From assembly GCA_963817955.1 (NCBI GenBank), contig CAWFQK010000009.1, positions 1 to 64,000 of the forward strand: a stretch of 64,000 nt of DNA, read 5' to 3'. Shown here piece by piece: positions 28,186 to 63,301 of this stretch (positions are counted from its first letter, which is position 1; every line of letters begins with the position of its first letter). The notes beneath the pieces are model-generated. The model was not told where the DNA came from. It saw nothing but the letters and a program-made list of their open reading frames with translations, and ran no database searches. The position numbers and the translations under genes are program-made. The stretch is from an uncultured Gemmatimonadaceae bacterium (GTDB taxonomy: Bacteria; Gemmatimonadota; Gemmatimonadetes; Gemmatimonadales; Gemmatimonadaceae).

Positions 28186-29172
28186 ATGTACCCATTCACC
28201 TTTGTGTCCGCAGCCGATGAGGCGTCGGTGCGGGACCTGCTGGCAAGTGATGCGAGCACGCTGGTGCTGGCTGGTGGCACGACGCTCGTGGATCTCATGA
28301 AGCTCGATGTCGAGCGCCCAACGAAAGTCGTGGACATCAACGCGCTCCCGCTCAGGCAAATCGAGGATTTGCCGGGTGGAGGACTGCGAATCGGTGCGCT
28401 CGTGCGCAACAGCGATCTAGCGCATCATGATCTGGTTCGGGAGCGCTACCCGGTCTTATCGCAGGCGTTGCTCGCCGGCGCATCACCGCAGTTGCGGAAC
28501 ATGGCGACCACCGGCGGAAACCTCCTGCAGCGGACGCGGTGCTATTACTTTCGCGATACGGCCTCCCCGTGCAACAAGCGCGAGCCAGGTACCGCGTGCT
28601 CGGCGCTGCACGGACAGAACCGCATCCACGCCGTCCTCGGTACGAGCGAGCACTGCATCGCGACGCATCCGTCAGACATGGCCGTGGCGCTGGTTGCGCT
28701 CGACGCCGTCGTCCACCTGCGCGGGCCGAGTGGTGATCGCTCGGTACCGCTGACCGCGTTCTACCTGGTACCCGGTACGACGCCGCAGCGTGAGACGGTC
28801 CTCCAACAGGGTGAGCTCATTACTGCCGTCGACGTGCCGCCGCTGCCGTTTGCCAAGCGCTCTGTCTATGTGAAGGTGCGCGATCGCGCGTCCTACGCAT
28901 TTGCCCTCGCTTCCGCGGCGGTTGCGCTCGACGTTCAGGACGGGACGATTCGGAATGCCCGTGTCGCGCTCGGCGGGGTCGGCACCAAGCCGTGGCGAGC
29001 GATCGAGGCAGAGCATGCGCTCGTCGGCAAACGGCCGGGAGCTGCCGCCTATCAAGCGGCGGCCAACGCCGCATTGGCGGGTGCGGTGGGACGCGAGCAC
29101 AACACGTTCAAGATAGCAGTAGCCAAGAGAACGCTCATGCGAACACTCGCACGTGCGGAGTCATTGACATGA
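28186..29172 (+). CDS. PaoB/YagS-like FAD-binding subunit
   Basis: [48 protein letters not shown]. Confidence 0.92.
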
Positions 29173-31253
29173 TCGGCGAACCGATCAATCGCGTCGACGG
29201 CAGACTCAAGGTGACCGGTGCGGCACACTTCACCGCCGAGACGCCGGCCGACCGAATGGCATACGCCGTGATCGTCCAGAGCAGCATTGCCAACGGAACG
29301 CTGCAGACGATCGATACCAGCGCAGCGGCCGCGGCGTCTGGCGTCATTGCCGTGATGACGGCCGACAATGCGCCACGCCTTCCGCAGCAGGGACGCGCGG
29401 CGCTCAAACCGCCGTCGGGGCGCGCGTTGTCGCTGCTCCAGGAGCGGACCGTTCACTACAATGGCGAGCCGATTGCCGTGGTCATCGCGAGCTCGTTCGA
29501 GGAGGCGACGCATGCGGCGTCACTCGTGCGCGCCATGTACCAGACCGACCAGCCAGTGATCGACATGACGGCGGCCCTGCCGAACGCCCGTCCGTATACC
29601 GAGAAGATTCTGGGCAGCATCCCGTCGGCGCTCGCGCGCGGTGATGTCGCGTCAGGACTCTCGGAGGCGGCGGCGCGCGTCGACGAGACCTATACGACGC
29701 CAATCGAGACGCACAACGCCATGGAGCCGCACGCCACCGTCGCGCAATGGGAGGGCGATCGGCTCACGCTGTACGATTCCACGCAGTACGTCTATGGCGT
29801 CAAACGCTTTGTCGCCAAGACACTCGGCGTGCCGGAAGATAGCGTTCGCGTCATCTCCAACTTTGCCGGCGGCGCGTTCGGCTCGAAAGGATCGGCGTGG
29901 TCCCACGTCGTGCTGGCCGCCATGGCGGCGAAACAGGTGGGCCGTCCAGTGAAGCTCGTGCTGTCCCGCCGGCAGATGTTCGGTCTGGTTGGTGCGCGTC
30001 CATATACGGTACAGCGTGTCGCGCTCGGAGCCCACAGTGACGGCACGCTGACCGCGGTTCGGCACGAGTCGACATCGAGTACGTCGGTGCTCGAGGATTG
30101 GCTGGAGCCGTCCACGCTCCAGACACGGATGTTGTACGCGACGCCGAACATCGAGACGAGTCAGCGGCTCGTGAAACTGAATGTCGGAACACCGACATTC
30201 AATCGGGCACCAGGTGAAGCGTCTGGAACGTTTGCGCTCGAAAGCGCGATGGACGAGCTCGCGGTAGAGCTCGGGATGGATCCGATCGCGCTCCGTCTCA
30301 AGAACTACGCGGAGGCCGACCCGGAGAGCGGACATCCCTGGTCGAGCAAGTCGCTTCGCGAGTGCTACGCACAGGGCGCGGAGCGGTTCGGTTGGGCGCG
30401 ACACAACCCGCGCCCGCGAGCGACCAAGGACGGGGAAGTGCTCGTAGGGTATGGCATGGCGACGGCAACGTATCCCGCGCGGCGAAGCCCAGCGTCGGCG
30501 CTGGCGCGCATGCTCCCGAATGGCGACGTCGTGGTGCAGGCAGCAACACACGAGCTTGGGACGGGTACGTACACGGTCATGTCCCAGATCGCAGCCGACG
30601 TGCTGGGCATTCCGGTAGGGCGTGTCCACTTCGAGTTGGGCGACAGCACGATGCCGGAGAATCCGATCTCTGCTGGCTCAATGACGGCGGCGAGCACCGG
30701 GTCTGCCGTTCAAGCTGTCGCGGAGGCGCTCCGCGACAAGCTGCGTTCGCGAACTGGCAATGAGACAGTCGAGGCCCGCGTCAGCGTGAAGCCGGGGGAT
30801 GAGCAACAGCACTATTCCATGCATTCGTTTGGCGCGGTCTTCGCCGAGGTGCGCGTCGATCCGGACCTCGGCGAACTGCGAGTGTCGCGTGTCCTTGGCG
30901 CATACGGCGTCGGACGTCTGCTCAATGACAAGACGGCCCACAGCCAACTCATGGGGGGAATCGTGTATGGGCTGGGCCACGCGCTGACCGAGGAGACGAT
31001 CATCGATCCGCGCACCGGGAGGTACCTCAACGCCGACCTTGCGGAATACCTCGTGCCCGTGAACGCTGACGTCCCGGACATCGAGGTCATTGTCGTTGAC
31101 GAGCACGATACGATCGTCAACCCGCTTGGCGTCAAAGGCATTGGCGAGATTGCAACGACCGGTGTTGCGGCCGCGGTCGCGAATGCCGTCTTCAACGCGA
31201 CGGGACATCGGGTGCGGACGCTGCCAATCAGGTTGGACAAGCTCTTGGTCTGA
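29169..31253 (+). CDS. PaoC/YagR-like molybdopterin-binding subunit
   Basis: [35 protein letters not shown]. Confidence 0.92.
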
Positions 31254-47747: not shown

Positions 47748-49863
47748 TCACGAGATGTACAGTGTCGTATCCCCGGCGTTATAGGAAACCGTGCGCGCAA
47801 CGAGGTTCGTGGTTCGTTGCGGTGAGGACGGAAGAAGCTGGCCCGCAGAATCGAACAGCGCGTTATGGTTGGGGCAGTGGAACGCGGATCCCGTGCTGTG
47901 CCAGTTCTCTATCCGCACCGTGGTTCCCTGATGTGGACACCGCATTGAGAACGCAGCAAATGTATTCGCGCCAGTGCGAACGACGGCAGTCGGCGTGCCC
48001 TGAACGACGCCGACGCTGCCCGCTATACCTCCCACGGTGGCGAGTGTGGGCCAATTGGCGATGACCACTCCAAGCCCCGCCGGGCTCACGGCGAGCGTCA
48101 CGGCCACGGTCTTGGCGGCTACGCCTACGGCGGTGATCTGAACCGTTGCCGTGTACGTTCCAACGGAGAACGTGCTCGAGGCCGCTCGTAGGGTGAGCGC
48201 GGCCGGCGTTGTCGTGGTGTTGAGCGAGGACCCACTGAGCCACCCGGTTGCGCCAGATCCGTAGGTGACGCTGAACGCGAGGCCGCTCAGTATGGCGCTC
48301 CCACTACTCGTGATGTTCACCACCTGTCCGCCCGGGCTCGTGCCGGCGGGCGCGCTGAATGACACGCTCGCCGGCGACAGCACCAGCGCGGAACTGGCCC
48401 CGACTGTGAGCGTCACGGCGACAGTCCGCGGCGAATTGGCGACGCCGGCAGATGCCACCGACACCGTCGCCGTATAGGTACCAGGCGGCAGCGCCAGTGG
48501 AGAGGCGGTGAGTGTGAGAATCGCCGGCGCTGTCGTGGTGGAGAGCGCGGCCGTCAGCCACCCCGAGCCGCCCGTGCCATACGCGATTGCCGCGGTGAGC
48601 CCGGCGATGGTGCTGCCGCCGCCGTCTTGCACATTGATCGTTTGGGTTGCGGTGCTGCCGCCCCCTTGCGTCGTCAGGAATGACGCCGTGGTCACCGAAA
48701 GCGCCAAGCTGGGTGCTGCATTCGCCGCGGCCACCGTGAAGGTGACGGCAACTTGCAGCGGCGAGTTGGTCGCTCCGGACGCGACGATCGGAACCGTCGC
48801 CGTATATGTTCCCGCGTTCAGCGCGCCGAGCGTTGGCGTGAGGATGAGTGTAGAGGGTGCGGTGGCCGAGGTGAGTATCGCGCTCGAGCCACCCGGCGGC
48901 GCCCGCGCCGAATGCGATCGTTCCGATGCTGAGCCCCGCAAGCGTTCCACCGCCAACGTTCGTGATGGCGAGCTGCTGCGCCACGGGGCTTGCGCTGCCG
49001 GCCGCGGCGGCGAATGCGACGTTCGTCGATGCGACGGCGATTGTCGGCGCCGCCGCGGTAGACGAAACGAGGAGGGAAACGGGGAGCGCCTGCGGCGCAT
49101 TGACGGCCGTGGGCGCAGTGATCTGCACCGTCGCCGTGTACGCACCGGGGGCCAGCCCTGCGATCGACGGTTGCAGTGTGAGCGTCGCCGGGGCAGTGTG
49201 CACGTCGAGCGTGGCGGCGAGCCAGCCGCTTGGCTGAGCCAGTCCGTACCCGACGACGATATCCAGTCCCGATAGTGTTCCACCGCCCGTATTGGTGATG
49301 CTCGCCGTCTGCACGGCGGGATTGGTTCCGTTCTGCACGGCGGCAAAGACTTCGCTGGTGGGACTGACCGACATGCTTGGCGCCGGTCCCGCGCCCACAG
49401 GGCCGTTGATCGTCACGGTGCCGGCGTTGGGGTCGAACGTGACGCCCAGTTGCGTCAGGTCGCCCGTTTGATGGCCGCCGATCCACGTGCCGTCCGCCGC
49501 GAACTCAGCAAGATGGCTCGGGCATCGGAATGCCGGCGATCCCGCCAACTCCACGATCGCACCTTGATGCGGGCAGACCAACGAGACCGCCTCGAAGGAC
49601 GCGGTGCCGGTGCGAACGAGAGCGACCGGCTGTCCGGTGCCGCCGTCGAGGCGGGCCATGCCCCCGATCGGGGCAAGTTGAGGAAAGTCTGATAACTTGA
49701 TCGTGAAGGGCGTCGTGGGGAACGGATCGGTCGGATAGGTACCACCAATGTTGCGATCGCCGCACGCCGAGAGCACGAAGGCCCCGATCGTGCCGAGCGC
49801 GCCCCGACTGATGAACGCTCGGCGCGGGAGATTTCCGCCGCATGGGCAGTCTGGCGAACACAT
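47748..49863 (-). CDS. Tat lipoprotein: Rieske - four Ig/BACON-like repeats - Rieske (1-nt frameshift near 48885)
   Basis: PRRAFI..VLSAC, CPHQG..CPSH, four repeats with GWL..APA.LTL..GTYTATV, then CPHQG..CPNH. The two ORFs join in the middle of repeat 2. Confidence 0.85.
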
Positions 49864-50736: not shown

Positions 50737-51285
50737 TCATGTCGCCACTTCCCGGTGGAGTCGCTCCGCCAGCGCAAGCAGTTCTGCGTGGGTCGTGACG
50801 TCCATTTCCTCCACCTGCGCGAACGCCGCAATGACGTCGCCGTGCGCAGGCTCGGGGATCAGCTCGCTCGCCATAGGGAACAGCATCTCGTCCTCCTTGG
50901 CGATGTGGTCGCGAAGCAGTGCCGCGTAACTACGGGCGGCCGCTATGATGCGGCCGCTCGCGCGAGTGTCGCCCGCGTCCAGCTGCCTGGCAGCCTCGCG
51001 GAGCTGACGGACGTACGCCCGGCCCTGTTCGTGTTCCTCCAACATCATCTCGATCGCGCCGCCCCGCTCCGGGGCACCGTGCCGAGTCATCGTGGGGAAC
51101 AGGACTCCCTCCTCCTTCCGATGATGCGAGCCATCGGCGAAGCGGGCAGCGAAGTCCGCGGCATCGAGAAAGAAGCGCGCCGGCACGGCCTCGCCGCGCG
51201 CGAGCCGCGCGGCGCCGGCGTCAAGCGCATCGAGCACCTGCTCGATGACGCGGTGTTCCTGCAAGAGTACGTCGATGGCTTCCAC
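50737..51285 (-). CDS. Hemerythrin (HHE) domain protein
   Basis: EHRVI, HHRKEEGVLFP, EEHEQGR, HIAKEDEMLFP. Confidence 0.92.
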   Translation of the reverse strand: MEAIDVLLQEHRVIEQVLDALDAGAARLARGEAVPARFFLDAADFAARFADGSHHRKEEGVLFPTMTRHGAPERGGAIEMMLEEHEQGRAYVRQLREAARQLDAGDTRASGRIIAAARSYAALLRDHIAKEDEMLFPMASELIPEPAHGDVIAAFAQVEEMDVTTHAELLALAERLHREVAT

Positions 51286-51303
51286 GCGGTCCTCCCGCTT
51301 CCG

Positions 51304-52383
51304 TCAGGTGGGCGTGAGCACAACTCGCTTTGCGAGCTGTCCATGATGCGCGTCGTCGAAGACCTCATTGATGCGCGAGAGCGGGTGGCGCTCGACGAAT
51401 TGCTTCACGTGAATGCGTCCGTTGGCGATCCATTCCAACAGCTCGGGATAGATGAGTGGGTCGGCCCCCCAGTTGCCGCGTGCCTCGGCGTCGTACGCCA
51501 TGAGGTTCGAGAGACACAGTTCGACTCGTTCGGCGGTATAGCCGACCACCGACAGCACGGCGCCGAAGCCTAGCAGGGCGTATGCCGTTTCCTGGCCGGC
51601 GCGCGTGCCTGAGGTCTCGAAGATCTTCCAGCAGTGCGGTGGCGCACCCAGTGCATTTGCCAGATCTCGCACGGCCTTGCGCGTGTCCTTCACGCTCATG
51701 CCATGAACGTCGATGCCGCCCTGCGCGCCGGCGGCACGTGCCTGCTCGAGCTTTGCGGCGCTCACGTCTACCGCGGCGACGATGGCACCGGCCGCGGCCG
51801 CGATCTGCACGCCGTGCACACCAATGCCGCCCGCACCGACGAATACGGCGAAGTCGCCGGCTTCGAGGCCGGAGCGCTTCACCGCCTGGAAGGGTGTCGA
51901 TATGGCATCGGAGACCACGGCGAGCTCCCACAAGTCGTGGCTGGCAAGGAGCGCGGAAGGCACAGGGCAGAGATAGCGCGCGGGGACGACAACGTGCGAC
52001 GCGAATCCGCCGTGGCGGTCGTTGCCCGGCATGACCTGGTTACGGCAGATTGCGCGGCGGCCTGCGCGGCAGAGATCACACTCGCCGCACGGCAAAACCG
52101 CTGGCACGATGACGGCCTGGCCGATGAGCCCCGCATCGACGCCCGCGCCGATTTCGCGGACCCACCCACTGATTTCGTGGCCAAGGACGAGCGGCAACGC
52201 AGACCGAGTCTTCACGCCCTGCATGAGGAAGGAGACGTCGGTGTGACAGACGCCGCAGCCGGCGACCTCCACGACCGCTTCGCCCGGCTCGGGCTTCCGA
52301 TTGGGGAGCGGACGGTGCTCCAGGCGCGCGCCGGGCGCGGTCATGAACCAAGCGTTCCACTCGGAACCCGCTACGTGCGTCAT
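51304..52383 (-). CDS. had: 6-hydroxycyclohex-1-ene-1-carbonyl-CoA dehydrogenase-like Zn dehydrogenase
   Basis: VAGCGVCHTD, LGHEISG, VPAVLPCGECDLC..C, MPGND.HGGFASH, KIFETSGT.AGQ, LSNLMAYDA..GNWG. Confidence 0.85.
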   Translation of the reverse strand: MTHVAGSEWNAWFMTAPGARLEHRPLPNRKPEPGEAVVEVAGCGVCHTDVSFLMQGVKTRSALPLVLGHEISGWVREIGAGVDAGLIGQAVIVPAVLPCGECDLCRAGRRAICRNQVMPGNDRHGGFASHVVVPARYLCPVPSALLASHDLWELAVVSDAISTPFQAVKRSGLEAGDFAVFVGAGGIGVHGVQIAAAAGAIVAAVDVSAAKLEQARAAGAQGGIDVHGMSVKDTRKAVRDLANALGAPPHCWKIFETSGTRAGQETAYALLGFGAVLSVVGYTAERVELCLSNLMAYDAEARGNWGADPLIYPELLEWIANGRIHVKQFVERHPLSRINEVFDDAHHGQLAKRVVLTPT

Positions 52384-52387
52384 TGTG

Positions 52388-54277
52388 TCATTCTCCTGTG
52401 CTGGCGACGCCATTGGCGTCGTCAAAGATGAAGGCCCCGCACTCATGGCACTGCGCGAGCGTGCGATCTCGTCCGGCGAAACAGGGGCGGTGGTCGTCCG
52501 CCAGGCGCAGCACTTTGCGCAGGAAGCGGCACTCGCACGCGGCGCTCGGCTCGTACACGGCATCGACGTAGCCGTGGGCGCGCTCGAGCACTGTGCGTAC
52601 GCGCACTTTGAGCGACGGCGTCAGCTCGCCGTCCTCGATCGACAGCTCGGAGCTGATGACGACGAAGGCGTTGACGCGCTCGTACTTCACGGCATGCGAC
52701 CGGTTGAACTCGAGGATGGTGTCGCGCAGCGACGCCTTCACCTCGCGTTCGGCGGCTGCGCGATCGGTGCCGAACTCCTCGGCGATACGGAAATAGTCGG
52801 GGAACACGAGTGCGGCGACGAAGTCACGGCCGTCGCCGGTGATGATCACGTGCCGGATGTACTTGTTCATTCCGGCGAGGCGGTTCTCGATGTCCGTCGG
52901 GACGACCTTCTCCGCGTTGAGCATTTTGAACACACGGTCCTTCCTGCCGACAAGCCGGAGCCCGTCGCCAGAGAGCTCGCCGAGGTCCCCGGTGTGGAAC
53001 CACCCATCCCCGGGAAGAGCACGCGTCGTCGCCGTCTGGTCCATGTAGTAGCCGGCCATGACGTTCAGACCGCGGATGAGAATCTCGCCGTCGGGTGCGA
53101 TGCGGACGCTGACGCCGGGAATGGGATAGCCAACCATGCCCGGCACCGCTCTGGCCTCGGCGGGATCGGTGAGTGTGCAGCAGGGCGAGGTCTCCGTGAG
53201 GCCCCACCCTTCGACGACGGCAACTCCCTTGGACGCGAAAAATTGCGACAGGTTCGCGGGGAGCGGCGCCGCCGCTGTGAATACGAAGCGTAGATCGGGA
53301 TGGAAGATCGACGCGTCGTCTTCCGGATGCGCTTGCGCGTGGGCCACGAGTTGCTGGTAGACCTTCGGCACGCTGAAGTAGATCGTGGGGCGCGTCTCGA
53401 TCCAGTTGCGGAGCAGGGCAGCAAAGTCGCGGCCCAGGGAATCGTCGATATAGATGGTCGCGCCATTATGCAGCGCGGTGTACTTCTCGAAGATCCCGCC
53501 GAAGCTGTGGTGCCAGGGGAGATACGATAGGAAACGGTCGTTCGACGTGACGTCCCACAGCGCCGCGAGGGCACGCCGCTGCGAGAGAATGTTGTCGTGG
53601 GTGAGGAGCACCCCTTTGAGAGCGCCGCTGGTGCCTGACGTGTACATCATGAGGCAGGGCGCATCAACGTCGATCGCGCATGACTGAGCGATGAACTCGC
53701 GGCGCGTGACGTCGCTGGGCCGCAAACGACGCACGACCTCATTGAAGGCGAAGCGGCCGTGCTGCGCCTCCGGCGTACTGTCGAAGGTCAACACCGCCTT
53801 CGCCGACGCTGGAATCTTGATGCGGTCCGCGTTCGCCGCATCGGCGAAGATCACGATGCTCGGCGCCGCGTGCTCGAGGAGCTCCGCGGTCTGCTCCGGC
53901 GAGTACCCGGCGAAGAGCGGGACGTACACGGCACCAAGTGCCATCGTACCAAATTCCGCCGTCAACATCGCCGACCGGTTCCGCGAGACGACCGCTACGC
54001 GGTCGCCTGGGACGGTGCCTTGCTCCATGAGAAAGCAGCGGAAGGCGCAGGCGTCGTCCAGCAGTTGGACCCACGACGTTGCCCGGTATGCGCCGTCGCG
54101 CCGCTCGCAACATACGGCGAGATCACCGAAACGTGCCGCATTACGGGCCAGCAGCGCGCCAACGCTCTCGCGCTCTCCATGGGGAGCCAGCGAGCATGTC
54201 AGCGTGTCGTCCTGACGCACCGACGCTCGCGCGTGATTCAACGGGAGCCGCCTGGAAAGCTGCTCGTCAGATTTCAT
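52388..54277 (-). CDS. AMP-dependent acyl-CoA ligase (long-chain FACL type) with a Cys-rich tail
   Basis: MYTSGTSG..KGVLLTH, EGWGLTET, WFHTGDLG, GELTPSLKVR. Confidence 0.9.
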   Translation of the reverse strand: MKSDEQLSRRLPLNHARASVRQDDTLTCSLAPHGERESVGALLARNAARFGDLAVCCERRDGAYRATSWVQLLDDACAFRCFLMEQGTVPGDRVAVVSRNRSAMLTAEFGTMALGAVYVPLFAGYSPEQTAELLEHAAPSIVIFADAANADRIKIPASAKAVLTFDSTPEAQHGRFAFNEVVRRLRPSDVTRREFIAQSCAIDVDAPCLMMYTSGTSGALKGVLLTHDNILSQRRALAALWDVTSNDRFLSYLPWHHSFGGIFEKYTALHNGATIYIDDSLGRDFAALLRNWIETRPTIYFSVPKVYQQLVAHAQAHPEDDASIFHPDLRFVFTAAAPLPANLSQFFASKGVAVVEGWGLTETSPCCTLTDPAEARAVPGMVGYPIPGVSVRIAPDGEILIRGLNVMAGYYMDQTATTRALPGDGWFHTGDLGELSGDGLRLVGRKDRVFKMLNAEKVVPTDIENRLAGMNKYIRHVIITGDGRDFVAALVFPDYFRIAEEFGTDRAAAEREVKASLRDTILEFNRSHAVKYERVNAFVVISSELSIEDGELTPSLKVRVRTVLERAHGYVDAVYEPSAACECRFLRKVLRLADDHRPCFAGRDRTLAQCHECGAFIFDDANGVASTGE

Positions 54278-55109
54278 GAGCGGCGCTCTCGGCTGTGGTC
54301 ATCATTGGGTGGGGTTTGGTGGCTGCCGGGCCGACGGATGAGGCTCCGTCCCGCGCGGCGAGTGCCGCGCCAAACGCGCCCATCTCCTGTGGGTGCGGCG
54401 GCACGACGATGTCTACATGCAGTTCGCGGGCGAGCAGCGTCACCATGGTCGGGTGATGTGCAATGACACCGCCCGTGGCGACGACGCGGCCTTGCAGCAC
54501 GTCCATGGCGACGATGCGCTTCACGAGCGAGCGATACGCGGCCATGGCGAGATCGGCCGGGCGCTTGCCGCTGCGAATGAGCGTGAGCAACTCGGTTCCG
54601 GCAAACACCGTGCAGAAGCTCGACAACTCCAGGTCCTCTCGCGTTTCGGCGGTGAGCGCGTCCATGTCCTCGATGGGGACGCCGAGACGCAGCGCGATTT
54701 CATCAAGAAAGCTCCCGGTCCCGGCGGCGCACTTGCGATTCATGCGGTGCGAAACGCGCTGGCCTCCAACGTCGAGGCGAATGACCTTGGCATCTTGTCC
54801 ACCGATGTCGATGACGGTCAACGGTCCGGGAACGTAGAAGGCGGCGCCGCGTGCGTGGCAATCGAGCTCGGTTCTGGAGCCATGCGCAAACGGCACACTC
54901 TGCCGCCCGAAACCGGTGGACCACACAGCGTGGATGTCGCCGCACGCGCACCCTGCGCGCGCGAGGGCATCGGCGTACGCGCGTTCGGCCGCTCCGGCGA
55001 GATCGGCACCGGACCGCACGACAGACGTGCCGAGCACTCGTGCATCGCTGTCGATGATGACAGCCTTGGTGTTCCATGAGCCGCTATCGATTCCCGCATA
55101 CTGCATCAT
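54267..55109 (-). CDS. BadF/BadG/BcrA/BcrD-type ATP-dependent activase
   Basis: GIDSGS..TK, STGFGR, IDIGGQDAK, MNRKCAAGTG, SSFCTVFA, GAFGAA. Confidence 0.92.
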   Translation of the reverse strand: MMQYAGIDSGSWNTKAVIIDSDARVLGTSVVRSGADLAGAAERAYADALARAGCACGDIHAVWSTGFGRQSVPFAHGSRTELDCHARGAAFYVPGPLTVIDIGGQDAKVIRLDVGGQRVSHRMNRKCAAGTGSFLDEIALRLGVPIEDMDALTAETREDLELSSFCTVFAGTELLTLIRSGKRPADLAMAAYRSLVKRIVAMDVLQGRVVATGGVIAHHPTMVTLLARELHVDIVVPPHPQEMGAFGAALAARDGASSVGPAATKPHPMMTTAESAAHEI

Positions 55110-56347
55110 GCGCTGCTACCCCGATTGGCGATCTTCGCATCGGCGAGCTGCTCGACAAATCCCTCCATGTTCGTGCGCGTCTGCTCATCGGACACGCAGC
55201 GAAGATCGTTCACGTCACCATCCAGGATGAGCGATGGGATGCCGATGCGCTCGGTGAGACGGGCGGGCATGCCGTAGCGGCTGTTCGTGTTGTTCGGGCA
55301 GGTACGGCAGTCATGGTAGATGATACCGTCGACGTGATACAACTCGGCCATGCGCGCGATATAGTCTTCCTTCGCCTGCTCCGACCGGACGATGAACAGC
55401 TCCAGCGAGGCGCGCGCCATCGACTGGATGGGATTTGCGGGATCGAGTGCGGAGAAGATCCAGCTATTGCAATAGGTGGAGGCGACGACCGCGCTGCGAA
55501 ACTCGGCGAACAATGTGGATAGCGCGCGCAGCCGGCCCCAGATCGGCATGCCGTCCCAGAACAGGCGAAACGTTTCACCCTCGACGGCCGCGGCGTTCTG
55601 TTGCGCGCGCGTTTCCAGTTCGGCGAGCAGGACGCGGTAATACGCGCACGCCTCTTCGGCGCCCCTCAGCACGACGGCTGGGCCCATGTGGATGGTGCCG
55701 TCGAAGAACGTGAGTGGCGCTGGCTCATGCGCTGCCGTACGAAGGCACAGCTCCCACAGGTCCGAGCAGTCACGCGAATGGCGCACCGCGGCTTCGAGCC
55801 GCTGCGAATCCAGCCGCGTGCCGGCCACGGCTTCGAGCGTCGGCACGAGGCGCTCGATCTGCTTGGCGATGGCGTCCACGTCGTCCTGTGTGACGACTTC
55901 AAGCGAACGAGGCGAGCGAATGCCGACGACCGGTACGTTCCATGTACGCCCGTACCACTCGAACCAGTCGCGCACGTCGCGGCACTGGTTGGTATTGAAC
56001 ACGAGCACGTCTGGTCGCGGCGTGCCTGCAAGACCGTACGCTGTCAGCGGTGACTCGCCGGCGAGATATGCGCCGACGTCGCTCGTCAGATACGAGCAGA
56101 TTTCCTGCGAGTAGCCGTGCGCGTGCGCGAGCGGCATGTATCGGTTGGCCGTACGTGCCGCGCCGAGCATGGCCGCGTGGTTCTCTGGAAAGAACACGCG
56201 GAAGCCCAGGGCGCGCAGCAGTTCGGCGGGGCCGACGCTCGTGCACCAGGCGACCGGCGCGGTTCGCCGTTCCGCGGCGTCACCGAGGTCGCGAAAGTAC
56301 GCGTCCATCGTTGCTTTGAGCGTGGCGGCCGATGCGAGCGTAGTCAT
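55106..56347 (-). CDS. 2-hydroxyacyl-CoA dehydratase / class I benzoyl-CoA reductase Fe-S subunit
   Basis: FPENH, EICSY, NTNQC, RLFWDGMPIW, HDCRTC, LILDGD..QTRTNMEGF. Confidence 0.88.
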   Translation of the reverse strand: MTTLASAATLKATMDAYFRDLGDAAERRTAPVAWCTSVGPAELLRALGFRVFFPENHAAMLGAARTANRYMPLAHAHGYSQEICSYLTSDVGAYLAGESPLTAYGLAGTPRPDVLVFNTNQCRDVRDWFEWYGRTWNVPVVGIRSPRSLEVVTQDDVDAIAKQIERLVPTLEAVAGTRLDSQRLEAAVRHSRDCSDLWELCLRTAAHEPAPLTFFDGTIHMGPAVVLRGAEEACAYYRVLLAELETRAQQNAAAVEGETFRLFWDGMPIWGRLRALSTLFAEFRSAVVASTYCNSWIFSALDPANPIQSMARASLELFIVRSEQAKEDYIARMAELYHVDGIIYHDCRTCPNNTNSRYGMPARLTERIGIPSLILDGDVNDLRCVSDEQTRTNMEGFVEQLADAKIANRGSSA

Positions 56348-57138
56348 GACGGCTCTCCAGCACGCAGCGTCATGAGCGCGGCCCCGACCGCGGCCGTGTA
56401 GATCGGCTCTTGCACGGCGTGCACGGGAATGCCGGCCAGTGATTCCAGGGCTTGCAGCACGCCCGGGAAGAACTCGACGACGCCGCCGCAGACATACAGT
56501 GGCTCGCAGAACCCGCCGATCTCGACAATGCGCTCGGCGACCGACCGCATGCAGCCGAGCGCGACCTCTTCTCTCGTCGCGCCGTCGCGCAGTCGTTCGA
56601 GCACCTCGGTCGCCGAGAAGACAGAGCAGTAGCTGCTGACGGTGACGGAATGTTCGGCGGCGGCGGCGAGCTCCTGGAGCCGCGTCGGCGGCACATCGAG
56701 GTGGCGCGCAGTGAACATGAGAAAACTGCCGATGCCCAGCGCGCAGCGCCGCACGCCGCGCGCATCCGTGCGGCGGCCGAGGTCATCGACGCGGATCACA
56801 TGCGGATCGCGTCCGCCGATGTCCACGAGCGTCATGGAGTGCGAGACGTGCTGGAAGGCGCCGAGTGCGTGACAGGCCCCGTTGCTGGCGCGCAGCGTTG
56901 CGTCGGCAACGCAGTCCATACCGAATCCAGTCGCGCCGATCGCATCGATCGCGTCTGCGTCGAGCTGTGCATCCTCGAGGGCCGCGGCCAGCGCCTCAAA
57001 GGCGCACGCCTGGAAATATCCGCGGATCGGCGTCACGGCGCGTCCGAGCACGCGCCCGTCCTCGCTCGCCACGACGGCTTTGACGCACTCCGTTCCGACG
57101 TCGATGCCGGCAGCGATTCTCATCCGATGATCGGGCAT
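56344..57138 (-). CDS. Second BadF/BadG-type activase subunit
   Basis: GIDVGTECVK, ATGFG, VDIGGRD, RRCALGIG, SSYCSVFS. Confidence 0.88.
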   Translation of the reverse strand: MPDHRMRIAAGIDVGTECVKAVVASEDGRVLGRAVTPIRGYFQACAFEALAAALEDAQLDADAIDAIGATGFGMDCVADATLRASNGACHALGAFQHVSHSMTLVDIGGRDPHVIRVDDLGRRTDARGVRRCALGIGSFLMFTARHLDVPPTRLQELAAAAEHSVTVSSYCSVFSATEVLERLRDGATREEVALGCMRSVAERIVEIGGFCEPLYVCGGVVEFFPGVLQALESLAGIPVHAVQEPIYTAAVGAALMTLRAGEPS

Positions 57139-57157: not shown

Positions 57158-59448
57158 TCAGTACGCCACGAGGCGGTCGGTGAAGAGCTCACGGTGCTCC
57201 TCGATGAAATCCGCAAGCTGGCGCTCGAGCCGCTCGGCGGAAAAGAGACGGGCGTCGTGCGCGTCGGCCTCGAGGACGAGTGTCGGAATGTCCGTGAGCC
57301 GTTGGCCGCGTGCGCCAAGACCGTAACCCAAATGACTTGCCTCATGCGACGTGCGGCAATGATGAAGCACGATCGCGTTGACGCCGTATTCCTCCAGCCG
57401 CGAATCCACCGACGCGTTCCGGTAAGCTTCCGAGCGATTGCCGGAGACTCCGGCGTAGGCGGCCCCCATGCTCGAGAGTGGATCGCGACCGTCGAGTGCC
57501 GTGAGCGCAAAGGTGCTCGCGTACGTGGACGCGACGATCGCTACGCCGCGGGCGGCAAAAATGTCGGCCAGGGTGTGGCGTGCGCACCAGACGGGCGGAC
57601 CTTCCCAGTACACGCGATGTGTCTGGTTGGGAACAGCGGCGATGCCGCGAGCCATCCGATCCTCGAGCTCCGAGGCGAGCAGGCGATAGTAATCGACCGC
57701 TGCGCGCGTTCCGCGGAGCAGCACCAGCGGTGCCAGGTGAACCTGCGCGTCGAAGAATGTCAGCGGTGCCGGATTCGTGCGCGCCATGCCGAGGATATGC
57801 GCCCACAACAGGGAGGCTTCGGCGCTCGCGCTCACGACCTCGGAGAGGCGGCTCATCTCGAGCGAGCGTCCCGTGACTGTCTCCAGGCGCTCGATCAGCC
57901 GAGCCAATTGTGCCGTTGCCCCATCGATGTCTGTTCGCTCCAGCACGTGTGAGCCCGGGCGGGAAATGCAGGCCCACAGTCGGCACATGAAAATGCGAAC
58001 CATAGAACTCGAACCAGGGCTGCAACTCGTGGCCGGTGTTCGTGCTGTACACGACCACGTCCGGCCGCGGTGGGCCAGCAATGCCGTGCGTGGCGACGAG
58101 CGGGCTGGTGCCTGCCAGCAGCGCCCCGATATCCGAGCGCATGGCCGAACTGACGAACGGCGAGTACCCCTCGGCGGCGGCACGGGCCAGCGCGGCGTGC
58201 GACTGCCCGGTCATGCTGATCAGCGCCGCATGATGCTCGGGCAAGTAGGGCGTGACATCGAGCGCGCGGAGGATCTCCACCGGAGCGAGCGACGAGCACG
58301 CAGCCACTGTACGCAGCGGATCGGCCGCCGCGGCCGCCAGATCGACGTAGTACTCGTGGACGATCTCCTTCAGTTTGCGCGTACTCTCGAGGGGCGGAAC
58401 TGTACGGCCCGCCATCGGACGCCGGTGACCAGTGTGCCGTCCCGTCGCACTCGCGACCGGTGGTCCGCCAGTCGCGCGATGCTCCACGATTCCCAGTTGC
58501 TGAACCACCTGCTCCTTCTGGAGGAAGGTGTTCCGCTCGCGCGAATGAATGAAGTGCGTGATTGCCGCATTGTGTGGCGCCTGCATTCCCAGCCGCGTGG
58601 CTTCAGCCACGACGGCGCCGTTCAGCGCGTCGACCTCGGTCCGCTTACCGCGCGACAGGTCCTGCCACATGGAAGGGCGATTCTTGCCGAGGGAGCGCAA
58701 CGAACTGATCACCGGGCGGAAGGGATCTTCCTCGTCGACGATCGGAATGCCTTTGGCGCGCATCACGGCGATGATTTCCTCACAGAGCGCGCGCATGAAC
58801 GCCATGAGGTCCGGATCGCCGAGCATTTCGCGGCAGGTGAGACCCGTGAGCGCCGACGTGGGATTCACGACCGCGTTGTGGAGAAGCTTCTGCCAGATCG
58901 CGTGCTCCACATTGTCAACGAGGTCAGTGTTCAGGCCCGCCCGATTGAAGATCTCGGCGACAGCCTCCGTGACAGGGGAGCGCTCACCAACGAACGGGGC
59001 GATCTGAATGGGCTTGATGCCCGTGCGGTAGTTCAGACGGCGCGGACCGGCGTGCTGGATGCTGTGATACGTGATGCCGCAGAGCACGCGCCCCGGAGCG
59101 ACGAGCGACGCCAGCTTCTGCGCGTTGCCAACGCCGTTCTGGAGCGAGAGAAACAGCGTCTTGTCTGAGCACGCTGGCAGTATGGCGCGGACGGCACTCT
59201 CCGTCTCATAACCCTTCACGGCCACGAAGACGAGATCGAGATCCGATAGCTCATCGACGCTCGAGACGACGTTCAGCGGAACGCATACCTCTTCTTCGCC
59301 GACGCGGGAGATGAGGAGGCCGTCCTGCCGCAGGAGATGTGCGCGTGCCGCGTTCACCTCGAGCAGCACGACGTCCTCGCCAGCTCGCGTCAGTTGCGCG
59401 CCGACGAGTCCGCCCAGCGCGCCGGCTCCGACGAATGAGTATTCGCAT
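57158..59448 (-). CDS. Fusion of ketopantoate reductase (PanE/ApbA) and a HAD/BCR-family subunit (indels near 59433 and 57950)
   Basis: GAGALGG, LSLQNG, WQKLLHN..NP, SMWQD..TEVDALNG, continuing in frame through a linker into LPEHH..RVYWEGPPVW..LVLEADAHD. Confidence 0.82.
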
Positions 59449-59476
59449 TTCGGGCCCCCTCCGACCGCCACGTGGC

Positions 59477-60264
59477 TCATTTATTACTCCAGACCGGCCG
59501 TCGCTTTTCGAAGAAAGCTGCGATGCCCTCGCGCACGTCGTCGGTCTGCATCAGTTCCTCGAGGAACACTCGCTCTGCCTCCTCTCGGGCCTCGCCGAAC
59601 GGCCGGTGCAAGAGCGCACGGGTCAGGCGCACGTTCATCCGCATCACGGCCGCACTCGACGCGGCGCAGGTCGGCCAGCACCTCGTCGAGCGCGCCGGCG
59701 AGCGCCTCCGGTGCGACGACGCGCGAGACCAATCCCAAGGCGCACATTTCATCCGCGGAGTACACGCGTCCGCGCGCCGTGACCTCGATCGCTCGGCCGA
59801 CACCGATGCGCGCGGGCGAGCCAGGCGACACCGACCGGCGCAAAGAAGCCGAGCCGGATCTCCGGTTGCCCGAAGGTGGCACGGTTGCTGGCGAGCAGGA
59901 TGTCCGCCATCATGGCGAGCTCGAACCCCGCACCGAGCGCCGCGCCATCGACCGCGACCACGATCGGCAGCTCGCTCTCGCCAAGCGCGGCAAAGAGGCG
60001 GCTGAAGGCTCGCGATCATTGCGGGCGCGTTCTCAGGCCGATGTTCGCCGACGTCGGCGCCCGCCGAGAAGGCGCGTCCCTCCGCTTGCAGCACGAATGC
60101 CTTGAGCGACGGCTCGCGTCCGGCGGCGTTCGACCGCGGTGGCGAGCTCGCAGCATTACCTCCGCCGTCGACAATATTCACCGGCGGCGCGCAGAGCGTG
60201 ACGAACGCCACGTCGTCTTGCGTGGCGTAGCGCACCAAATTCGTTACTTCTGTGCTGCTGGCAT
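59477..60264 (-). CDS. Enoyl-CoA hydratase, Dch (dienoyl-CoA hydratase)-like, frameshifted
   Basis: PPVNI, FSAGADVGEH, ALGAGFELA, FGQPEIRLG, FLEELM.T.D..EGIAAFFEKRRPVW. Confidence 0.8.
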
Positions 60265-60276
60265 GCCGCTCTCCGG

Positions 60277-61039
<763 letters not shown>

Positions 61040-61041
61040 CG

Positions 61042-62039
61042 TCACATCTTACTCGGCTGCCTGATCATGCGATCCGGCAACGCCGCGCCGCAAGTGCCGC
61101 AGAAGGTGAACTGCTTCGGGAATGCCCTTCGCACCGCACTTCGCGCACGTCCTTTGCCGTACGGCCCCCAGAGGAATTCGCTGCTGCCGCTCTCGCTGCG
61201 GCCGCCTGCGCGCGCAGTCCGCATGAAATCGATCTTCCGCTTCTCGACGAACGCCTGCATGCCCTCGTACGGCTCGAGCGTCGTGAAATGCGTCGAGAGC
61301 CAGTCGCGCGCGTGGCCGACGGTCGCGTGCCACGGCGCTTCCTTCCAGTAGTTCACCTGCTGCTTGGTGTAGCGCGTGCACTCGGGGAACTTCTCGAGCA
61401 GCTGCTTGACGAGCGCGCGCACTTCGTCATCGAGCTGCGCGCGCGGCACCACGCGGTTCACGAGCCCCACTCCAGCGCCGTTTGCCGCGGGGATGCGCGG
61501 GTTCAGGAACAGCATCTCGCGAGCGCGGCGGTCGCCGACAGTGATCGAGAGCCACTGCGTGGCGCCGCCGCACGCGACGCTGCCTACGCTCGTCCCGACC
61601 TGGCCGAGGTACGTGTCGTCGGCCATCACCGCGAGGTCGCAGGCGAGCTGCGTCTCGTTGCCGCCGCCGACGGCGATGCCGTTGATGCGCGCGATCGTCA
61701 CCTTGCCGCTTCGCAGGATGCTCTCGATGTACTTGGCGAAGAGCCCCATGTACTTGAAGTAGTCGTGCGGGCTCTGCGTGTAGACGTGCCTGCGTACTCC
61801 TTCACGTCGCCGCCGGTGCAGAACGCCTTTTCGCCGGCGCCCGTCAGCACGATGACGCCGACGCTGTCGTCGTTCGACGCGTCGTCGATCGCCGTGATGA
61901 GCTCCTGCAGCGTGACGTGGTGTAGCAGTTGAAGGACTCCGGCCGGTTGATCGTGATGCGGCCCACCCAGTCCTTCTTCTCGTACAGGATGTCCTTGAAG
62001 CCGAAGCCTGGCAGCCTCCTTCGAGGCGAAATAGTTCAT
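61042..62039 (-). CDS. Oah/MenB-like crotonase (ring-opening hydrolase candidate) with a C-terminal Zn ribbon, frameshifted
   Basis: [44 protein letters not shown], then CAKC..FCGTCG. Confidence 0.78.
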
Positions 62040-62074: not shown

Positions 62075-63301
62075 TCAGCGCACGCTGACTTTCAACACCA
62101 CCGCGGCGGCGCTGTCGCCCGCGGCACAGCCAGTGAACAGTCCATAGCCGCCGCCTGCGATCGCGAGATCCTCGATGAGCTCGATGATCGACCGGAGCCC
62201 GGTCGGTGCCTGCGGGTGTCCCCACACGAGCGAACAGCCGTGGCGGTTCATCTTCTCGGGATCGAGCGACAGCTCGCGCGAGAGGTAGACGTCGTTCACG
62301 GCGAACGGGTTGTGCGACGTCGATGCTCGCGAGCTGGTCCGCGCCGATGCCCGGCGCGTTCCAGTGCCATGCGCGGCGGCCGGCACGACGGCCATCGGCA
62401 TGAAGCCCTTCTTCACACGCGCTTGTCCGTACGAGAGCAGCTGCACGTCGATCGTTCGCCATTGCGTCGCCATGCTGCGCGCGCGCGGTCGCGATCGCCA
62501 ATGAGCACCATTGCCGCGCTCCCGTCGGCGGGATGCGTCTGCGTGCCGAAGGTGACCGTTCCGCCCTCGAGCACTGGCCGGAGACCGGCCAGTCCTGCCG
62601 CAGTTCGTTGCATGCACGCCCTCGTCGCCCGTGACGGTGGCCATGCACCTGCTTACCGCGGCGTCCTTCACCTCGAGCGGACCACGGCATATAGCGCCGC
62701 AGGAAGGCGGCGTCGTCGGCCAGCGCGCGCGCGTACTGCGCATAGCGCAGGAGCGTGATCTCCTCCTGCGCCTCGCGCGATCGATGCCCACTTCGCGCGC
62801 CACGTTCTCGGCGGTCTGCATCATCGAGTTCTTGGCGTACGGATCGTGACCGAAGCTGTCGAGCACGAGGTTCTCAGAGTCTCCCGTGCCGCCGGGGCCG
62901 GCCGGGTTGGGATAGAACACGTGCGGACCGTTGCTCGTGCGGTCGGCCGTCGCGGCGAGATAAGACGCTCGCCCCTCCAGCGTGAAGTTCCTCGGCGCCC
63001 TCGACCAGACAGCGCACCGACGTGGCGCATGCCTGATTGACCGTCGGGCCGCTCGCGTGGCAGAGGCCGGCGAGACCGGCGAACCACGGGGCGCCGTAGA
63101 AGGAGTCCTTGCTGGCACCGTCATGCCGAGGCACATGCCATCGACATCGCTCGGCGCGATGCCGCGCTCAGCGAGCGCGCGTGCTGTCACCTCGGCCGCG
63201 AACGGAATGGGCTGGAGGGTGGCAAAGCTGCCTTGCCACGCACAGAAGGGTGACGACCAATAGGCGCCATAGGGAATCCAGACATCGTGGAATTGTGTCA
63301 T
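62075..63301 (-). CDS. Thiolase, frameshifted
   Basis: [40 protein letters not shown]. Confidence 0.9.

Follow-up and report, generated by a model that had tools for sequence, protein, structure and literature searches.

The locus described here raises the question of what a subunit of an iron-sulfur enzyme might still do once its cluster ligands are gone and a reductase has been joined to it. It lies in a window of 64,000 nucleotides (the whole stretch analysed: positions 1 to 64,000 of the forward strand of contig CAWFQK010000009.1, assembly GCA_963817955.1) from an uncultured Gemmatimonadaceae bacterium. On the minus strand of this window, between 57158 and 59448, a PanE/ApbA domain of the ketopantoate-reductase family is followed by an HGD-D domain (PF06050), the fold found in 2-hydroxyacyl-CoA dehydratases and in class I benzoyl-CoA reductases (BCRs). 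The initial annotation, made from the letters alone, held that the first domain runs in frame into a paralog of the gene at 55106–56347 from which the cluster cysteines have disappeared, and that the product departs from canonical BCR and might couple redox to the complex. The domains, their motifs and the motif changes are as it described, and the fusion, the cysteine loss and the departure from BCR are borne out by relatives; the in-frame gene and the redox coupling are not.

A genuine fusion across several phyla

The joining of PanE to HGD-D is genuine and widespread, and defines a family of about 760 residues. Searches of species-representative genomes gave 136 related stretches, of which 80 loci were kept; L074, which reaches a contig end and holds PanE only, was left out of the frame count. 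In 79 of the 79 loci holding both parts, the two are read in one stop-free frame, and among the best 120 protein clusters listed (query residues 1–508), 119 carry PF02558, PF08546 and PF06050 in 737–785 residues, the exception being a cluster of 505 residues that lacks PF06050. The fusion is thus not an indel artefact. Its relatives, all in metagenome-assembled genomes, belong to Gemmatimonadota, Acidobacteriota, Eisenbacteria, Krumholzibacteriota, Myxococcota and others. Our literature search, which did not extend to supplements, returned no description of a PanE–HGD-D fusion or of a cluster-free subunit of such enzymes, and no paper in which "2-hydroxyacyl-CoA dehydratase" and "ketopantoate reductase" occur together; a term search of a Krumholzibacteriota paper (PMC10936416) for dehydropantoate, ketopantoate and dehydratase found no mention.

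In the window itself, the fused gene is made up as follows.

59434–59448, minus: the first five codons, start included, reading MRILI and shifted by one base relative to the PanE body; the family consensus N-terminus is MRILIVGAGALGG (alignment A1)
59433–59435, minus: frame break 1, a single base too many (ATT C GTC), seen by blastn as a 1-nt gap in relatives L012, L042 and L019
58539–59432, minus: PanE/ApbA ketopantoate-reductase-family domain (GAGALGG, WQK, TEVDALNG; Pfam ApbA and ApbA_C)
58290–58538, minus: family-variable linker of about 80 residues (A1 consensus mostly "x"; no Pfam match)
57951–58289, minus: N-terminal third of the cluster-free HGD-D domain (FVSSA, STNTG; HGD-D profile 3–90; tblastn of P0001 residues 4–491)
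57947–57950, minus: frame break 2, "ACAC" between CTC (57953–57951) and GTG (57946–57944), where relatives have 3 or 6 bases
57158–57946, minus: other two thirds of the cluster-free HGD-D domain (CRTS) and stop codon (HGD-D profile 94–340; tblastn of P0001 residues 485–750)

The gene therefore does not run in frame here: it carries two 1-nt shifts, and the interval 57158–59448 measures 2291 nt (3 × 763 + 2), which is not a multiple of three. It spans two overlapping minus-strand open reading frames (ORFs) in different frames, 57342–59480 (712 residues) and 57158–58183 (341 residues). Pfam places ApbA (residues 16–163), ApbA_C (190–314) and HGD-D profile positions 3–90 (residues 398–508) in the former and HGD-D positions 94–340 in the latter, and tblastn with the relative P0001 divides in the same region, residues 4–491 matching 59396–57939 and residues 485–750 matching 57958–57161.

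A cluster-free subunit beside a cysteine-bearing partner

The HGD-D domain of the fused protein is a paralog of the partner encoded at 55106–56347, and the three motif changes are exact: EICSY has become FVSSA (serine codon at 58151–58149), NTNQC has become STNTG (glycine codon at 58034–58032) and CRTC has become CRTS (serine codon at 57349–57347). The fold is complete in the intact ortholog at the related locus L001, which covers profile positions 4–340 of 342 (E = 1.5e-45). In the partner, C84, C122 and C350 stand opposite three cysteines of HadB (3o3m_A; HMMER alignment over partner residues 25–411). We read these aligned HadB cysteines as cluster ligands because the homologous BzdO residues Cys95, Cys128 and Cys380 ligate its cluster together with a water, the same coordination as in HadB (PMC11971306).

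At the three ligand columns, aligned over 79 fused domains and 46 partners, cysteine occurs in 0/78, 0/79 and 6/77 fused domains, never at more than one column in the same protein, whereas every one of the 46 partners has it at each. Cysteine loss is therefore a trait of the family, and alignment A2 (n = 30) holds no invariant cysteine among the fused domains. In HadB as in HadC, three cysteines bind a [4Fe-4S] cluster (PMC7317905), and the fused domain does not have the three cysteines that each subunit of component D of a 2-hydroxyacyl-CoA dehydratase requires. Also missing is that enzyme's pairing of alpha and beta subunits from different subfamilies: among the chains of 2-hydroxyacyl-CoA dehydratases, both of our HGD-D proteins match the alpha chain 3o3m_A only (E = 2.1e-46 for the partner, 8.1e-26 for the fused domain), and they are alpha-type sister paralogs, about 41–45% identical to each other.

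A quick maximum-likelihood tree of 30 fused domains and 30 partners from the same loci, with 4 BCR-like outgroups, places the two groups on either side of a branch with SH-aLRT 98, as sisters relative to the outgroups and with similar internal order. The mean identities of each part to its L001 counterpart, over 42 loci, are as follows.

PanE domain: 66.7%
Fused HGD-D domain: 55.4%
Partner: 69.2%
ATPase1: 62.2%
ATPase2: 69.4%

In all 42 loci, the fused HGD-D domain shows the lowest identity. Judged from these comparisons, the pattern is consistent with an alpha-type gene having been duplicated long ago, the copy that lost its cluster then evolving under relaxed constraint; conservation and family-wide cysteine loss likewise agree with the earlier description of a cluster-less structural subunit. 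Complex prediction for the fused HGD-D domain (A2) and the partner (A3) gave a score of 0.28, below the mark of 0.32, from which we draw no verdict.

The partner has two further cysteines, C35 (56243–56245) and C293 (55469–55471), that are invariant in 46/46 partners and kept in 62/79 and 42/79 fused domains, respectively. The double-cubane cluster protein DCCP is defined by the seven-cysteine motif CX19CX18-19CX29CX166-170CX32-34CX32C (PMC7317905). C293 aligns with a DCCP cysteine, and the C122–C293 spacing of X170 matches that motif; the partner has five invariant cysteines, one motif cysteine is without a counterpart, and the NF040772 model gives 49 bits against a cut-off of 350. The fused domain does not carry the seven-cysteine motif. 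From its sequence, a simple [4Fe-4S] cluster might not be all that the partner holds.

The reductase domain

The reductase half has the Rossmann and catalytic lysine and glutamate motifs first reported for it, on the minus strand at 59429–59409 (GAGALGG), 58895–58875 (WQKLLHN) and 58643–58617 (RTEVDALNG). On the window ORF, Pfam scores 110.2 bits for ApbA (E = 9e-32, cut-off 22.2) and 121.8 bits for ApbA_C (E = 2.9e-35, cut-off 22.7), and the L001 ortholog scores 255.7 bits on TIGR00745 (cut-off 141.35). Across 20 family members, K173, E257, N94 and S245 are invariant or nearly so; K173 and E257 are presumably the equivalents of Lys176 and Glu256 of the E. coli enzyme. Solved relatives are 3hwr_A (E = 6.8e-33) and the D-mandelate dehydrogenase 3WFI (3wfi_A, E = 4e-19), and the PanE of Lactococcus is reportedly a D-2-hydroxyacid dehydrogenase. 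The domain keeps the Rossmann, lysine and glutamate motifs; it differs from stand-alone PanE/ApbA reductases in being joined to HGD-D, and the nearest of these are about 35–39% identical. The exception is P0122, a stand-alone PanE of 316 residues that is 56% identical to the fused domain and for which the metagenome scan gave no locus. A search of the ESM Atlas with the PanE part returned generic PanE clusters only.

Without a flavin, a domain that transfers hydride cannot supply Fe-S clusters with electrons one at a time, which makes the redox coupling raised in the initial annotation unlikely. With electron delivery set aside on these grounds, and with a partner closer to HadB than to the catalytic subunits of BCRs, PanE would most simply serve to reduce a 2-oxoacid to the 2-hydroxyacid for a dehydratase-type reaction, the first option of the initial annotation. 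To judge from gene content, it may provide 2-hydroxyacyl substrates in this way.

Origin of the frame breaks

The two breaks are very probably errors of assembly or consensus and not biology. They lie inside or at the edge of an error-dense stretch (57948 to ~71220 on the same contig) that begins in the middle of the fused gene. Relative to the L001 orthologs, all genes between 57.9 and 69.5 kb are split between reading frames, with 4 pieces in the crotonase ECH_b, 3 in the crotonase ECH_a, at least 3 in a short-chain dehydrogenase/reductase (SDR), 2 in a TetR protein, 3 and 2 in the molybdenum (Mo) and FAD subunits of a neighbouring enzyme discussed below, and 3 each in BcrD and BcrA. This amounts to at least 16 breaks across 9 genes, with no nonsense codons and no large deletions, and the tblastn pieces span almost the whole of the L001 queries at 72–96% identity. 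From 50.7 to 57.9 kb, by the same comparison, there are zero breaks. A Viterbi pass on codon usage agrees, the coding frame flipping every few hundred bases from 57.9 to 71.2 kb (~13 kb) with long clean segments on both sides. From 57948 to ~71220, the assembly gives the impression of a local lack of polishing or of low coverage.

Split genes also occur elsewhere in the genome. Run genome-wide, the same method gave 105 same-strand frame-switch candidates, or 45 with stricter length limits, and 14 of the 45, picked at random outside contig C9, were scanned with Pfam. Five split a single Pfam domain over two frames (ThiC 1–153 / 144–419; PEPCK_ATP 125–318 / 314–463; N6_Mtase 3–105 / 111–286; Epimerase 2–144 / 144–240; CPSase_L D1 / D2), five were adjacent genes and four were ambiguous. 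Broken thiC and pckA genes in a free-living genome favour consensus indels. The alternative, that the fused gene and its upstream neighbours are true pseudogenes in a decaying aromatic-degradation island, would explain why the breaks crowd into one 13-kb stretch (57.9–71.2 kb) that holds BCR, Mo-enzyme and beta-oxidation genes, and no reads cover either break site. We nevertheless consider decay quite improbable: all of the breaks are small shifts in genes covered nearly full-length, the broken stretch opens within a gene, housekeeping genes elsewhere (thiC, pckA and a CPSase) are split likewise, and at 60344, 60452, 60490, 60502, 61649 and 62661 the window has single bases that are missing from short-read contigs of a close relative. 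Those contigs come from one soil-metagenome run (X1, 9% of sampled words), the only source of reads, and they leave 57352–58527 uncovered; to that extent, the breaks could be real.

Programmed +1 frameshifting is ruled out by the single frame of 79/79 related loci and by the lack of a stop or slippery context at either site. Automatic annotation of this stretch of the assembly will yield fragments.

Two further observations concern the same data. Of 36 X1 contigs on the cluster (55722–57015, 59093–59336 and others), 2 match at ≥99% and 7 at 95–99% identity, which points to a close relative of this organism in that soil sample. Another same-strand frame-switch candidate lies at ~48849, between a segment without a clear domain (47994–48851) and a Rieske-domain segment (48850–49818), and may be another indel or two genes.

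Genomic neighbourhood

The genes flanking the fusion in the window are listed below.

56344–57138, minus: ATPase1, BcrAD_BadFG family (RRCALGIG, SYCSVF; Pfam), both cluster cysteines aligned to MbdQ 9gai_D and HgdC 1hux_A
55106–56347, minus: cysteine-bearing HGD-D partner, HadB/alpha-like (3o3m_A), with C84, C122, C350 and the invariant C35 and C293
54267–55109, minus: ATPase2, BcrAD_BadFG family (RKCAAGTG, SFCTVF; Pfam E = 3e-44)
52388–54277, minus: FadD-like acyl-CoA ligase with a Cys-rich C-terminal tail (Pfam AMP-binding; NCBIfam on the L001 ortholog)
51304–52383, minus: zinc-dependent alcohol dehydrogenase (Zn-ADH), Had-like, that is, like 6-hydroxycyclohex-1-ene-1-carbonyl-CoA dehydrogenase (L001 ortholog, 82.7% identical: TIGR03201, 421 bits, cut-off 338.65)
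59477–60268, minus: ECH_b crotonase, in four frame pieces (best NCBIfam match dienoyl-CoA hydratase)
60280–60940, minus: FabG-like SDR, with at least two frame shifts
61042–61999, minus: ECH_a crotonase, BadI/Oah/MenB-like, in three frame pieces
62075–63301, minus: thiolase

This genome keeps the gene order of L001 as far as BcrA at 69.5 kb. Counting only loci with enough flank, ATPase1 lies directly downstream of the fusion in 69/69 and ECH_b directly upstream in 61/66. Near the fusion are also found the Had-like Zn-ADH (38/40), the Mo enzyme and its FAD subunit (39/46 each), TetR (42/46), the SDR (39/46), ECH_a (28/46), the thiolase (22/46), ATPase2 (29/40), the ligase (21/40), and canonical BcrA (18/46) and BcrD (20/46). 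The partner lies within 10 kb in 30/40 loci, and where a genome has none at that distance, a partner ortholog (646–661 bits) was found elsewhere in 5/5 tested.

Profile matches at L001 give the neighbours their names. BcrD scores 339 bits on its NCBIfam model (cut-off 312.85); ECH_a is nearest to BadI, MenB and Oah. The Mo enzyme is like 4-hydroxybenzoyl-CoA reductase (4-HBCR), with its gamma and alpha subunits fused (L001 1604–5388; ~64066–67850 in this genome), and the fused subunit scores 935.6 bits, just below the 4-HBCR alpha cut-off of 994.55. Its FAD subunit scores best as XdhB; the 4-HBCR beta model matches it in two stretches, with 135.6 bits against a cut-off of 404.55. The 4-HBCR of Thauera carries an extra [4Fe-4S] loop, which the FAD subunit here may lack, to judge from its sequence. 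A second Mo enzyme of the xanthine-dehydrogenase family (FAD and molybdenum-cofactor subunits) lies on the plus strand at 28186–31202, about 20 kb from the cluster.

At its other end, the ligase closes (52388–52530, minus) with a Cys-rich, zinc-ribbon-like tail (CEC ... C ... CHEC) outside the AMP-binding Pfam domains. The cluster ends with a hemerythrin-domain protein (50740–51297, minus) with weak likeness to the RIC/YtfE di-iron Fe-S repair proteins; a relative is present in 16/40 related loci, and in facultative soil bacteria it could shield enzymes such as these from oxygen.

Both ATPases keep the two HgdC-type cluster cysteines and are the products of two different genes, from which we infer that the pair forms a heterodimer and not a homodimer. 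Among solved structures, ATPase1 matches MbdQ best (E = 6.5e-29). No fusion of PanE to an activase stood among the best 120 of 4324 longer relatives of ATPase2, a capped listing that does not argue against such fusions. Two genomes, G002 and G004 (loci L038 and L062), have the fusion, the partner and the Had-like gene together with only two BcrAD genes in total, in assemblies that may be incomplete; each also has one gene of the aldehyde:ferredoxin oxidoreductase (AOR) family, ~670 residues long, which scores 194 bits against 868 on the aldehyde:ferredoxin oxidoreductase model. These are the 2 of 5 genomes checked in which no canonical BcrA or BcrD was seen.

Proposed function and alternatives

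We propose that the fused protein is the scaffold subunit of an ATP-activated, one-cluster enzyme resembling the 2-hydroxyacyl-CoA dehydratases and carrying a tethered 2-oxoacid reductase, a proposal to which we give an even chance. The cluster-free subunit, alpha′, would pair with the cysteine-bearing alpha subunit (55106–56347), which would hold the sole catalytic [4Fe-4S] cluster. The two BcrAD-type ATPases would act as the ATP-driven electron injector, passing the electron straight to the alpha cluster; in BzdO, the cluster faces a solvent path proposed to be occluded by the ATPase dimer on docking (PMC11971306). A CoA thioester would then undergo ketyl-radical chemistry on the alpha subunit, as in 2-hydroxyacyl-CoA dehydratases. 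Its 2-hydroxyacid would come from the corresponding 2-oxoacid, reduced by the PanE domain, and would be activated by the ligase encoded nearby. The kinship of the partner agrees with this: the L001 partner scores 185 bits on the NCBIfam model for HadB, as against 128.3 for BcrB (TIGR02260, cut-off 486.55) and 71.4 for BzdO (TIGR03191, cut-off 448.6).

The cluster is embedded in benzoyl-CoA pathway genes, so the substrate may be an aryl-pyruvate. Aryl-pyruvate would be converted by way of aryl-lactyl-CoA to a cinnamoyl-type CoA and on to (4-hydroxy)benzoyl-CoA, a route that would occupy the ligase, SDR, thiolase and Mo enzyme and that is the weakest step of the proposal. A similar route to benzoyl-CoA has been hypothesised for a benzene degrader (PMC13416013). 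More specifically, it is possible, if on balance doubtful, that the electron-relay subunit has been replaced by a cluster-free paralog serving as a docking platform with its own 2-oxoacid reductase, so that one complex takes a 2-oxoacid through the 2-hydroxyacyl-CoA to the enoyl-CoA. If true, this would be an undescribed route feeding phenylalanine- and tyrosine-derived acids into the benzoyl-CoA pathway in soil Gemmatimonadota, Acidobacteriota and their relatives.

Several observations pull against a dehydratase-like enzyme. The pairing of alpha with alpha′ is drawn from co-occurrence and not from experiment, the CoA ligase is near the fusion in just 21 of the 40 loci, and no aminotransferase or other source of aryl-pyruvate is present from 28 to 51 kb of the window. 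Two different ATPase genes are a trait of BCRs and not of dehydratases, and the tightest neighbours, the Dch-like ECH_b and the Had-like ADH, belong to ring processing and not to side-chain beta-oxidation. The genomes without canonical BcrA or BcrD also leave room for the module to be the ring reductase itself. In a rival account, alpha′, alpha, ATPase1 and ATPase2 form an ATP-dependent, BCR-like reductase of an aromatic CoA ester such as hydroxybenzoyl-CoA, and PanE uses NAD(P)H to reduce the product of the ring reduction as its keto tautomer. The two different ATPase subunits recall BcrA/D and BzdP/Q; also in favour of this account are the MbdQ likeness of ATPase1, the nearly constant flanking by ECH_b and the Had-like ADH, the usual presence of the 4-HBCR-like Mo enzyme, and the fact that this module supplies the only BcrAD genes of G002 and G004. 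We think it unlikely all the same: the partner falls far short of the BcrB and BzdO cut-offs and is closer to HadB, no subunit has the six-cysteine [8Fe-9S] site of BzdN (PMC11971306), canonical BcrA and BcrD are encoded next door in Gemmatimonadota loci, including in this genome, and the AOR-family gene of G002 and G004 could be a class II BCR. The His131-type BCR signature is not diagnostic, the partner having Val at that position and MbdO also being without His in the HMMER alignment.

A different substrate altogether is also conceivable. The end point of the benzoyl-CoA pathway is glutaryl-CoA, and the module might act on a non-aromatic acid. It might, for example, interconvert 2-oxoglutarate, (R)-2-hydroxyglutaryl-CoA and glutaconyl-CoA where the pimeloyl/glutaryl-CoA branch ends, or act on branched-chain 2-oxoacids. 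Such an assignment would suit both the best matches of the partner, which are to the alpha subunit of 2-hydroxyisocaproyl-CoA dehydratase, and the thiolase and SDR, which fit short-chain beta-oxidation. Neither a CoA-transferase nor a glutaconyl-CoA decarboxylase was seen in the cluster, however, and no sequence feature fixes the substrate either way; we hold this assignment to be improbable.

Comparison with known systems

Among the closest counterparts of the dehydratase-like enzyme that we propose is HadBC of Clostridioides difficile with HadI, LdhA and HadA (3O3M/3O3N, 4EHT), with which it shares the HGD-D fold, an ATP-dependent BcrAD-type [4Fe-4S] activator and a 2-oxoacid reductase that would act earlier in the pathway. 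It differs in that the second subunit is alpha-type and without cluster cysteines, instead of a HadC-type beta subunit with its own [4Fe-4S]; in that the reductase is of the PanE family and fused to that subunit; in having two different ATPase genes where Had has one homodimeric activator; in the CoA ligase that takes the place of a CoA-transferase; and in its setting among the benzoyl-CoA pathway genes of soil phyla. The phenyllactate dehydratase of Clostridium sporogenes, FldABC with FldI and FldH, converts aryl-lactyl-CoA to cinnamoyl-CoA. Its chemistry is that proposed here for an aromatic substrate, whereas our module has no CoA-transferase subunit and the fused cluster-free subunit has no known counterpart in Fld.

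Class I BCRs (BzdNOPQ, MbdONQP and BcrABCD; 8S02, 9G87 and 9GAI) show the same layout of two HGD-D proteins and two BcrAD ATPases, the same genomic setting and a catalytic subunit with three cysteines and an open Fe site. In contrast, BzdN carries a six-cysteine [8Fe-9S] double cubane (PMC11971306) and the fused subunit here carries none, and BzdN and BzdO are 12.7% identical (PMC11971306) against ~41–45% for the two subunits here. Both of the latter are HadB/alpha-like paralogs with no [8Fe-9S]-type subunit among them, and the departure from canonical BCR claimed at the outset is upheld.

The family is common, with 136 stretches in several soil and sediment phyla, always set in clusters for anaerobic aromatic degradation, and its function matters for understanding the oxygen-independent breakdown of aromatics by uncultured soil bacteria. 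In the solved relatives consulted here (PMC11971306, PMC7317905), clusters sit in both halves: 4Fe and 4Fe in HadBC, 4Fe and 8Fe-9S in BzdNO, and 8Fe-9S in each subunit of DCCP. The fusion family has one cluster fewer and, in addition, a tethered NAD(P)H reductase, and it offers a test of the ATP-driven electron path and of the need for a second cluster.

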